In this document: in pieces, positions 3,905 through 6,775 of the stretch
Layout of the letters: each line of letters starts with the position of its first letter
Position numbering within the stretch: position 1 is the first letter of the stretch
Assembly (NCBI GenBank): GCA_038891475.1
Contig: JAWAEI010000001.1
Span: 1 to 34,648, forward strand
Direction: 5' to 3'
DNA length: 34,648 nucleotides
Source of the DNA: Candidatus Pacearchaeota archaeon
GTDB lineage: Archaea > Nanobdellota > Nanobdellia > Pacearchaeales > GW2011-AR1
Made by a program: the position numbers and the translations under genes
The notes under the pieces: model-generated
The model's database searches: none
Seen by the model: the letters and a program-made list of their open reading frames with translations, nothing else
What the model was told of the DNA's origin: nothing

Positions 3905-6775
3905 ATGACGTATATAAAAAAGCTGGTGATGCAAGGATTTAAAAGTTTTCCAAAAAAAACAGAAATCATATTCTCAAAAGGAATAAATGTGATAGTTGGC
4001 CCAAATGGCAGTGGTAAGTCAAACATATCTGACGCTATATGTTTCGCTCTGGGTAGGTTGAGTATGAAATCAATAAGGGCTGCAAAAGCCGAGAATCTTA
4101 TATTCCTGGGAACAAAATCCACCCCTCCTTCTAAAGAAGCAATAGTAGAGATTGTATTAGATAATTCAGAAAAAACTTTCTCTTACGAGAGTGAGGAGAT
4201 ATGCATAAAAAGAATAGTAAAAAAAGATGGCCAGAGCATATACAAAATAAATAACGAAACAAAAAACCGCTATGATGTTCTAAATCTACTTGCGCAAGCG
4301 GGAATAGATCCCTATGGATTTAATATAATTCTTCAAGGAGAAATACAAAATTTTGTAACAATGCAACCAGAAGAAAGAAGAAAAATAATTGAAGAAGTAT
4401 CTGGAATTTCTGTTTATGAACAACAAAAAGAGAAAGCTTTAAGAGAATTAGAAAAAACAGAAGAAAAATTAAAGGAAATAAATTCGATTTTGAGAGAAAG
4501 AACAAATTATCTCCTCAATTTAGAAAAAGAAAGACAACAAGCTCTTAAATATAAAAAATTAGAAAGTGATCTGAAAAAACTCAAAGCGAGTATAATCTCT
4601 CATGACTTACATAAAAAAACAAAAGAGTCTGAAAAAGCAAATATAGAAATAATCAAGAAGAATGAAGAAATAGAAAAATTGAAAAACACGATATTTGGGT
4701 TAGAGGAACAAATTAAAAATGCAGATTCAGAAGCTCAAAAAATAAATATTGAAATAAAAAAATTAACTGGGGTAGAACAAGAATCTTTAAATACAGAGAT
4801 TGCCGATTTAAGAGTAGAACTGGCTGGATTAAAGACAAAAATAGAAAATTATGAAAACCAATTATCTTCTCTACTTAATCAAAAGAATAATCTTAAAAAA
4901 ACAATAGAGGAGTTAGAAGATTTCTTATCTAAAATAAAAAAGGAACCCTTTTCAAAAGAGAAAAAAAGAGACGAAATAAATAAGAAAAAAAGAGAGTTAG
5001 AGGTTCTAGAAGAAAAGAGAAAGAAGTTTTATATTTGGAAATCTGAATGCTTAAGTTTAGAAGAAAGGATTTCTGATAAAAAAAATTTAATACAAAATTA
5101 TGAAAGGGATATAAAAACAATAAACAAACAAATAGAGATGATCTCTATTGAAATTGTAGACGAAAAGGCCGATAAAAATAAATTAGAAAAAGTAAGATCC
5201 TTATTAAAGGAAAAAAAAGCTCTTTTGGGCTCTTTATTAAAGAAAGAAATTGAATTAGAAAAGACAATTTCTTCAAATGAGTCTGAAATTGAATTGCAGA
5301 AGGATATGCTTGAAAAAATCCTAAAATTAGACATTTGTCCTCTATGTAAAAATAGAATAACTCCAGAACATATAGGGACTATAAAAAAAGATGTAGAGTC
5401 AAAAACAATCTTATTAAAAAAGGAAATAGAAAATTCAAATAAAGAGTTAAGGGAGATATATCAAAAAAAAGAGGTAATAACTAATGATATAGAAAACCTA
5501 ATCCAAGAGATATCTAAAATAGAATTAGACATAGCAAAATTAAAATCCATAAGTGAAAAAAGGGCCTCATTAAATATTTTAGAAGAAAAGATAAAGGAAA
5601 CAAGAAAAGATGTCGAAAATATGGAAAAGAGGAGAGAAGAAATTCTGAAATTGATAGAAGAAAATTCAAATATAGAAGAGAAATATGAGATTCTAAAAAT
5701 AGAGATGAGGGAAATACTAATGATGGAAAAAGAGAATATAGAACCAGAAATAGAGTCAAAAAAGAGGGAAATTGAAAAATTAAAGATATATCTTAAACAG
5801 ACGAATGAAAAGGAAGAAGAAATAATCAAACAAAAATCTGCCATAATAAATCTCATAAATGAAAAGGAAAAATCTTTTTATGAAAAGAAGAAGCAAGAAG
5901 AAGCGCTCAAAAAAAGATTTGAAGAAATTTTAAATAAAAGAGACTCTATTTATTCTGAAATAAAGAAAAAAGAATCTGAAGTCTTCACAAAGAGGCAAGA
6001 GATTAGGAGATTAGAGGAAGAAGTAAATGAGATAAGAATAAATAAAGCAAGGATTGACGCCGAGCTTAAATCACTTGAATCAGAAATGTCTGAATTCTCT
6101 GGAGTGGAGATAATCAAGGCAAGTAGGGAGATCTTGAACCAAAAACTCTTAAAAGTCCAAGAAGATTTGTCGAAAATTGGTAATGTAAACCTACGTGCTT
6201 TGGAAGTTTATGACGCGGTTAAGAAAGAATATGATTCCATAAAACAAAAATTAGAAGTGATATTAAAGGAAAAAGAGGAGATAGGAAGGGTTATATCTGA
6301 AATAGATTCTAAGAAAAAAAGGGTTTTTTTCCAAACAATGAAAAAAATTAATGAATTAATGACAAGAAATTTTTTCCAATTAAGTTCAAAAGGAGAAGCT
6401 TTCCTGGAAGTAGAAAACAAAGATAATCCTTTTGAAGATAAAAGCGGAGTTTATATAGTTGTCAAAACAGGACATGGAAAATATTTTGATGCAAAATCTC
6501 TTTCTGGGGGGGAGCAGACTCTGTTGGCACTCTCTCTTATTTTTGCGATACAAGAGTATAAGCCATACTATTTCTACCTCTTCGATGAAATAGATGCGGC
6601 TTTAGATAAAAAAAATTCAGAACGTTTAGCTGGTCTCTTAAATAAGTATATGGTAAAAGGACAATACATAATAATAACCCATAATGATGAAGTCATATCC
6701 CGTGCAACAAATATTTATGGTGTAACAATGCCTGGAAGCGATGGCGTAAGTAAAATAACCAGTATCAAGATCTAG
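3905..6775 (+). CDS. SMC-family ATPase with SMC-type heads, no hinge domain, and a central Rad50-like CxxC zinc hook
   Basis: 956 aa.
- N-terminal head: GFKSF...[20 protein letters not shown] (Walker A at 3998-4021).
- C-terminal head: [36 protein letters not shown]...IIITHN...IYGVTM (SMC signature, Walker B and D-loop).
- The interior is K/E-rich coiled coil with no glycine-rich globular hinge.
- [12 protein letters not shown] lies at aa 478-489 (nt 5336-5371), the exact midpoint. Confidence 0.85.
   Translation: [956 protein letters not shown]

Follow-up and report, generated by a model that had tools for sequence, protein, structure and literature searches.

A Pacearchaeota Smc orthologue that probably carries a Rad50-type zinc hook in place of the hinge

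Introduction

Whether the hinge of SMC proteins does more than join the two coiled-coil arms is a long-running question, and DNA binding, a gate for DNA entry and contact with the heads during loop extrusion have all been proposed for it. Here we examine a gene of Candidatus Pacearchaeota archaeon, an uncultured member of the DPANN with tiny cells (GenBank assembly GCA_038891475.1), that lies on the forward strand at positions 3905..6775 of contig JAWAEI010000001.1. The whole stretch of DNA that was analysed, positions 1 to 34,648 of this contig, is called the window below. The product of the gene is probably an Smc orthologue in which the hinge, of about 220 residues, has been swapped for a Rad50-type zinc hook of about 20 residues, with heads and full-length arms kept. 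In what follows we document the domain composition, conservation, orthology and fold of this protein.

The closest described likeness is an engineered one. In Smc(Zh) (Buermann et al. 2017, PMC5344682), the heads and arms of B. subtilis Smc were combined with the Rad50 hook of P. furiosus at the apex in place of the hinge; growth was normal, and function depended on arm length. Yeast Rad50 carrying the hinge of MukB is functional as well (PMC6969161). Among natural proteins, the Smc complex is reported to form chromosomal domains in an archaeon (PMC11840125). The archaeal SMC-related proteins (ASRPs: ClsN/coalescin, Sph1 and Sph2) belong to the SMC superfamily and have a zinc-hook motif at the coiled-coil apex (PMC9389158), and ‘hinge-less’ SMC variants of marine Actinobacteria, described in 2025, exemplify natural loss of the hinge within the SMC clade (PMC12153180). 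Full-text searches, whose coverage leaves out most subscription papers, returned no published description of a natural hook-bearing SMC.

Compared with canonical Smc (Smc-ScpA(B); Pyrococcus/Thermococcus, TIGR02169), the protein has the same kind of head, the same ATPase motifs and arm length, and the locus of a Woesearchaeota hinge SMC. It differs from canonical Smc at the apex, where a 224-residue hinge module is represented by about 23 residues with a CPxC, and in scoring below the equivalog cut-off. The resemblance to Smc(Zh) extends to the junctions, since one construct joins residues 1-480 and 691-1186 of 1186, close to the natural 1-458 and 683-1142 of a 1142-residue relative; the arm-length dependence of the engineered protein likewise matches the tight conservation of arm length in the hook SMC. 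Unlike Smc(Zh), the hook SMC is natural, ancient, fixed in a whole archaeal lineage and diverged to about 40% identity. With Rad50/SbcC it shares a CPxC...T..H apex, the layout of head, coiled coil and hook and a similar length, whereas the heads, the SMC locus and phylogeny and the lack of Mre11 nearby set it apart. The ASRPs are also archaeal and also have a zinc hook for a hinge, a likeness that does not discriminate because Rad50 has a hook too, but they form a separate, shorter family (profile of 593 positions) with divergent heads. The Actinobacteria variants are bacterial, have no CXXC, and are closer to the hookless mini-SMCs described below than to the hook form.

Results

The gene, its product and its motifs

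The open reading frame (ORF) starts with ATG and encodes 956 amino acids (aa). The product is identical to an NCBI entry named ‘chromosome segregation SMC family protein’ of Candidatus Pacearchaeota archaeon (P0001 in our numbering of homologues). An initial annotation, made from the letters of the window, had read it as SMC-type heads joined by a coiled coil with a Rad50-like hook for a hinge, and this core reading survived every test that was run. The SMC ATPase motifs that it quoted were all located, at the coordinates given below, and the two cysteines that it had assigned to the exact midpoint, residues 478 and 481, form a CPLC in the predicted apex. The features of the gene are as follows.

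3905..6775 (+), stop codon included: gene of the putative hook-type SMC, 956 aa (ORF call and identity to P0001)
3905..4408 (+): N-terminal half of the ATPase head, aa 1-168 (Pfam SMC_N at aa 3-136; PDB match of aa 1-237 to the Pyrococcus Smc head, E=1e-97; strands and helices in the AlphaFold2 model)
3998-4021 (+): Walker A, GPNGSGKS, aa 32-39 (motif)
4328-4345 (+): Q-loop, ILQGEI (motif)
4409..5323 (+): ascending coiled-coil arm, aa 169-473, with helix breaks at aa 345-350 and 417-423 (AlphaFold2 helices)
5324..5371 (+): predicted zinc-hook apex, aa 474-489 (conservation, Pfam Rad50_zn_hook, PDB profile, Foldseek)
5336-5347 (+): CPLC, aa 478-481 (motif within the apex)
5372..6190 (+): descending coiled-coil arm, aa 490-762, with breaks at aa 587-589, 607-611 and 730-740 (AlphaFold2 helices)
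6191..6772 (+): C-terminal half of the ATPase head, aa 763-956 (motifs; PDB matches to the Smc C-terminal head fragments 3kta_B and 1xew_Y)
6500-6514 (+): signature motif, LSGGE, aa 866-870 (motif)
6572-6589 (+): Walker B, FYLFDE, aa 890-895 (motif)
6593-6607 (+): D-loop, DAALD (motif)
6674-6682 (+): H-loop, ITH (motif)

The residues of the ATPase motifs are invariant across 49 homologues. The CPLC stands at 0.50 of the protein length, in a protein with five cysteines altogether; by chance, about 6e-4 occurrences of a CxxC would be expected at 10 residues or less from the midpoint.

The heads are those of an SMC protein

Profile searches placed the heads in SMC. Pfam SMC_N matched in two stretches (6.8e-56). 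Among the NCBIfam models, SMC_prok_A (528 bits) and SMC_prok_B (504.3 bits) were the best-scoring family by far, followed by ASRP (116.1 bits), Rad50 (60-89 bits), RecN (50 bits) and SbcC (33 bits). The Rad50 equivalog models have cut-offs of 700-1087 bits. A sequence search of the PDB gave the same picture, with the Pyrococcus Smc head at 1e-97 and Rad50 at 7.5e-13 at best. Both the NCBIfam scores and the PDB matches thus bear out the earlier view that the heads are SMC-like rather than Rad50-like, and they place the heads in SMC and not within bona fide Rad50.

The fold led to the same family. With the whole model as query, the Foldseek matches included condensin Smc4 (6.5e-31), the head and joint of P. 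yayanosii Smc (TM score 0.72 on the target) and full-length chains of condensin and of Smc5/6. The head of P. furiosus Smc was 49% identical, and the first Rad50 chain came only at rank 8.

The hinge is absent and the arms are kept

Pfam SMC_hinge (PF06470) had no match in the 956-aa protein at E<=1. A hidden Markov model (HMM) of the hinge, built from the nearest hinge-bearing relatives, matched 103 representative SMCs but no member of the hook class (P0001-P0146), in keeping with the earlier remark that no globular hinge was visible and that PF06470 should be absent.

In the full-length AlphaFold2 model (49 input sequences, pLDDT 76.8), the ascending arm consists of helices at residues 169-344, 351-416 and 424-473 and the descending arm of helices at 487-586, 590-606, 612-729 and 741-758. 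Between them is a loop of 13 residues (474-486) that contains the CPLC. The arms, about 300 residues ascending and about 275 descending, show SMC-like breaks. The coiled coil had been described as uninterrupted, which does not strictly hold, since the arms have short breaks of the sort that is common in SMC proteins. The length of the arms is under tight constraint, with 446.7 +/- 2.2 aa from Walker A to the first cysteine and 387.7 +/- 5.3 aa from there to the signature motif in 207 distinct hook-class sequences, in line with what would be expected of an arm that acts as a tuned mechanical unit (PMC5344682).

The apex resembles the Rad50 zinc hook

Three kinds of comparison connected the apex to Rad50. 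Pfam Rad50_zn_hook (PF04423) matched 35 of 35 non-redundant apex segments of the family (equivalents of aa 441-520), with a best value of 4.7e-8; the segment of the present protein itself was sub-threshold. The full-length Pfam scan (E<=1) did not report this domain, which was recognised only in a search restricted to the apex segment. When a profile of the apex segments was searched against all PDB sequences, the Rad50 hook of P. furiosus, 1L8D, came first (E=0.042), and the alignment laid CPvCkskiTpeH of the family profile on CPVCGRELTDEH of 1L8D. The Pyrococcus hook sequence given in the initial annotation is the one that 1L8D carries. Finally, a model of the apex fragment (aa 431-550, pLDDT 95.4) was compared by Foldseek with 350,542 chains, and 1L8D_B and 1L8D_A ranked first (E=0.027, probability 0.98). 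The Rad50 hook of C. thermophilum, 7ZQY, was third, and 6ZFF_B, a P. furiosus Rad50 coiled coil in its rod form, matched with a TM score of 0.79 and a root-mean-square deviation of 2.8 Å.

By these three independent and individually marginal tests, of sequence and of predicted structure, the apex is identified as a putative Rad50-type hook. The common Pro, Thr and His around the cysteines suggest that the hook may have been captured from Rad50 and not have arisen by convergence.

The hook is conserved throughout a large group

To describe conservation we used the 120 closest database clusters, whose identity to the query is 55-69%. All 120 have a CPxC at the midpoint, including three that are lengthened by an intein in the Walker A region, and in the 117 aligned intein-free homologues D476, C478, P479, C481, T486 and H489 are invariant. 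The longer pattern CPxC-x4-T-x2-H occurs in the same 120/120, in 85/85 hook-family ORFs of the fetched loci and in all 80 loci fetched through the GTDB scan, and a central CxxC is present in each of the 207 distinct hook-class sequences. The CxxC is therefore conserved in orthologues, a point that had been singled out at the outset as one on which the reading could fail.

Among 1.84 billion cluster representatives, the hook class reaches down to about 40% identity, and below that level the relatives are hinge-bearing SMCs of 1100-1200 aa. Named members of the class are Pacearchaeota or ‘Nanoarchaeota’, and the nearest hinge-bearing proteins are from Woesearchaeota. A peptide-pattern scan of GTDB species representatives found a relative encoded in at least 505 species genomes. 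The two patterns used occur in 0 of 103 hinge-bearing representatives, so that 505 is a lower bound for the group. Database names read plainly ‘SMC’, and a precomputed Rad50_zn_hook annotation exists for only 4 of the 120 closest listed homologues.

Two side observations concern individual members. Five homologues of 1465-1487 aa (P0032, P0033, P0065, P0126 and P0130) contain about 520 additional aa, inserted in the Walker A P-loop or directly behind it, after GPNGSGK, at the equivalent of about nt 3998-4021 of the window. The insertion is an intein in P0032, P0033 and P0065 (Pfam LAGLIDADG_3 and Intein_splicing), all three of whose exteins keep the CPxC; in P0126 and P0130 it was judged by length and alignment offset only. 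Hook-SMC contigs also occur under bacterial names among metagenome-assembled genomes (MAGs), namely JAHYJW010000001.1 (L010), DATKUW010000087.1 (L012) and JBAZBJ010000017.1 (L065), with the labels Patescibacteria group, Bacillota and Parcubacteria group, which looks like mis-binning or mislabelling. Many further hook-SMC contigs are labelled Woesearchaeota, yet their protein groups with Pacearchaeota.

The gene is orthologous to hinge-bearing SMC genes

Position and alignment both connect the gene to hinge-bearing SMCs. Immediately upstream in the window lies the following gene.

3189..3863 (+): RNase HII gene, conserved upstream neighbour (Pfam RNase_HII, 3.4e-48)

The SMC gene is preceded by an RNase HII gene in 77 of 89 loci, and a Woesearchaeota SMC with a Pfam-annotated hinge (P0283) has the same RNase HII-linked position. 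RNase HII is a marker of the ancestral smc position and a matter of context, not a functional partner. Other genes found nearby across the loci encode PCMT, a surface protein, a Toprim protein and EF-1alpha. P0150, the representative of the 90%-identity cluster of P0283, is a hinge-bearing Woesearchaeota SMC of 1142 aa, and the query aligns to it over residues 1-458 (target 1-458) and 482-956 (target 683-1142). About 23 residues thus stand in for the 224-residue hinge module of P0150, and the arms are otherwise colinear.

In a neighbour-joining tree of the head domains (96 sequences, 359 columns), 22 hook proteins formed a single group with four hookless proteins of 779-804 aa in 99 of 100 bootstraps; no replicate united the hook proteins by themselves. 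The nearest neighbours of this group are the Woesearchaeota hinge SMCs, and the hook heads nest among hinge-bearing archaeal SMCs. The hookless proteins (P0139, P0142, P0143 and P0145; P0279 is PIU75690.1; loci L005 and L006, about 6.1-8.7 kb) are hingeless mini-SMCs. Their arm tip (query aa 369-581) is gone and they have no central cysteine, but their genes occupy the RNase HII-linked locus as well. To all appearance they were derived from the hook form by secondary reduction.

A different kind of shortening was also seen, in which the hinge (GRxTFLPL-type motif) is kept and the arms are much shorter. It occurs in proteins of about 800-840 aa (P0207, P0213, P0215, P0221, P0231, P0234, P0243, P0248 and P0253), and in others of 943-963 aa (P0149, P0154 and P0217). 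The 800-840-aa proteins form a separate branch of the head tree, and P0149 and P0154 are placed among hinge SMCs of the Woesearchaeota type.

Partners and genomic context

We searched for partners in the window and in the loci of relatives. Pfam at relaxed thresholds found no ScpA, ScpB or Mre11 encoded in the window, which extends the earlier observation that none of them is adjacent, and the Pfam annotations of the loci fetched from metagenomes and MAGs likewise contained none. With B. subtilis ScpA as query, checked against PDB 3zgx_C and 5xg3_C, phmmer gave no match among 3092 ORFs of the 89 loci (1.37 Mb in total). No Mre11-type metallophosphoesterase occurred among conserved neighbours or in Pfam-annotated loci, and no second SMC-superfamily ATPase within 10 kb on either side in the 89 loci.

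Two candidates for a partner were discarded. A 285-aa unannotated ORF downstream of a hinge-type relative (L089:14004-14861), considered as a kleisin, is a membrane-anchored repeat protein. The ORF at 8039-9319 (-) of the window, 426 aa, has a signal-like N-terminus, a C-terminal transmembrane helix and no Pfam family, and probably encodes a cell-surface protein; its homologues (408-426 aa) lie about 1.2 kb downstream of SMC in 60 of 89 loci.

The window is archaeal, with genes for RpoH, RpoB, RpoA, ribosomal S12, S7 and S10, EF-2, EF-1alpha and a thermosome subunit, and a G+C content of about 30-35%. On this otherwise archaeal contig, the ORF at 20435-21244 (-), 269 aa, between the VIT1 and thermosome genes, has bacterial-type Sigma70 region 2 (9e-14) and region 4 (3.6e-10). 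RpoB (23906-27172 (+), 1088 aa) and RpoA (27182-30667 (+), 1161 aa, Rpb1 domains 1-5) each have a single fused gene, whereas the contig that carries a hinge-type SMC relative has both split, RpoB into 496 + 601 aa and RpoA into 845 + 377 aa.

Discussion

Two cysteines of a single chain cannot on their own complete a tetrahedral zinc site, and the only role of an apex CPxC known to us in the SMC/Rad50 superfamily is the 2+2 hook of Rad50 (PDB 1L8D). By analogy with that structure, each protomer would fold back into an antiparallel coiled coil with the CPxC at its tip, and two protomers would hold one Zn2+ through four cysteines, C478 and C481 of each chain, giving a homodimer constitutively joined at the apex. 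From SMC biology, we would expect the two SMC heads to engage and disengage with ATP binding and hydrolysis, and the dimer to act on chromosomal DNA as canonical Smc does, by DNA entrapment or loop extrusion. A kleisin, probably encoded elsewhere in the genome, would close the ring.

Other explanations had to be weighed against this one. Were the protein an ordinary archaeal Rad50, misnamed SMC and working with Mre11 in double-strand-break repair, its central CPxC with Rad50-like flanks, its Rad50-like length of about 950 aa and its weak full-length matches to Rad50 models (for example PRK03918, aa 4-951, 86 bits) would be explained. However, the Rad50 models remain far under their cut-offs while the SMC models reach 504-528 bits, the PDB prefers Smc heads at 1e-97 to Rad50 heads at about 1e-12, the protein is colinear and positionally orthologous with hinge-bearing SMCs, and neither Mre11 nor another SMC-superfamily ATPase was found within 10 kb in the 89 loci. 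We regard this explanation as extremely unlikely. Membership of the ASRPs (ClsN/coalescin, Sph1/2), acting alongside or instead of canonical SMC, had been offered in the initial annotation and would equally provide a superfamily protein with a hook motif at its apex; the ASRP model (NF045487) does detect the protein. The match, though, amounts to 116.1 bits in four fragmentary stretches, against a cut-off of 300 and 528 for SMC, and the profile has 593 positions for a protein of 956 aa. Moreover, heads and arms align end to end with canonical SMC apart from the hinge, the gene sits in the SMC locus, and the heads nest among hinge-bearing SMCs. An ASRP is thus very unlikely, and that suggestion is not supported. 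The other proposal made there, that this is the only condensin-like protein of a reduced genome, fares better in its condensin-like part, which is favoured by the hinge-SMC locus of the sister lineage and by the same nesting of the heads.

It is also conceivable that the central CPxC does no more than mark a conserved turn or provide a redox or intramolecular site, any dimerisation proceeding through arms and heads. The hookless, cysteine-free relatives within the group show that an apex link can be lost, and every score for similarity to the hook is marginal. Against this stand the insufficiency of two cysteines per chain for a tetrahedral site, the invariance among close homologues of three residues specific to Rad50 (a Pro flanked by the two cysteines and, counted from the second of them, a Thr at +5 and a His at +8), and the fact that the Rad50 hook tops both the profile and the fold search of the whole PDB; we consider a role of this kind unlikely. 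An SMC-like component of anti-phage or anti-plasmid defence (Lamassu LmuB, Wadjet JetC or similar) has in its favour some PADLOC matches (mad3 156 bits, in the C-terminal head only; LmuB 107; JetC 46), and Lamassu proteins are reported to be related to Rad50 (PMC12663957). But these scores are far below that of SMC, the context is one of conserved housekeeping genes (RNase HII, PCMT, a primase-like Toprim protein, EF-1alpha, EF-2 and RNA polymerase), no effector gene is nearby, and one conserved locus is shared by at least 505 species genomes, all of which makes the probability of a defence role practically negligible.

Several points weigh against our own reading of the protein as a hook-bearing Smc orthologue. 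The SMC equivalog cut-offs were missed (SMC_prok_A, 528 vs 729.4; SMC_prok_B, 504.3 vs 567.35), a shortfall that we infer to be due to the missing hinge. The protein's own apex segment reached 17.1 bits (E=0.005), below the Pfam gathering score of 24.3 bits, and the PDB profile match (E=0.042) and the Foldseek match (E=0.027) are each marginal alone; individually marginal hook scores are no surprise where the motif spans about 15 residues of a coiled coil. The head tree is distance-based and midpoint-rooted, without a Rad50 or ASRP outgroup, so the exclusion of both families rests on the profile scores. Hookless members nest in the group at the same locus, and the hook is thus not indispensable to every member. 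Finally, no ScpA, ScpB or other partner lies within 10 kb on either side in the 89 loci. With no kleisin near the gene, a tripartite ring is hypothetical; this absence says little, however, because several archaeal orders have smc and scpA at separate places and archaea often lack scpB (PMC7055376). Taken with these points, an Smc orthologue with a Rad50-type hook for a hinge remains the likely identity of the protein.

Such a hook-bearing Smc is the natural counterpart of a domain swap so far made only in the laboratory. It is compact, and its hookless relatives add further stages of reduction for comparison. A broader and more tentative idea, to which we give slightly less than even chances, is that the Pacearchaeota, with at least 505 species genomes, organise their chromosome with a wholly hinge-free SMC, perhaps kleisin-free, and show a miniaturisation series at one locus. 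If true, this series would run from the hinge form of Woesearchaeota (about 1140-1160 aa) to the hook form of most Pacearchaeota (about 950 aa) and on to sublineages with neither hook nor arm tip (about 780-804 aa), and it is conceivable that the complex would function with no recognisable kleisin at all.

If the hook protein is the sole SMC of these archaea, then DNA binding by the hinge, a DNA gate in the hinge and hinge-head contacts would be dispensable for SMC function in nature. Evolution has probably made the laboratory's swap itself, fixed it in a large archaeal lineage and kept the arm length within a few residues. A swap fixed in nature provides hundreds of sequences for asking which features of arm and head co-vary with the type of apex. 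For those who study SMC proteins, the lineage would thereby amount to a natural test, lineage-wide, of the need for a hinge.

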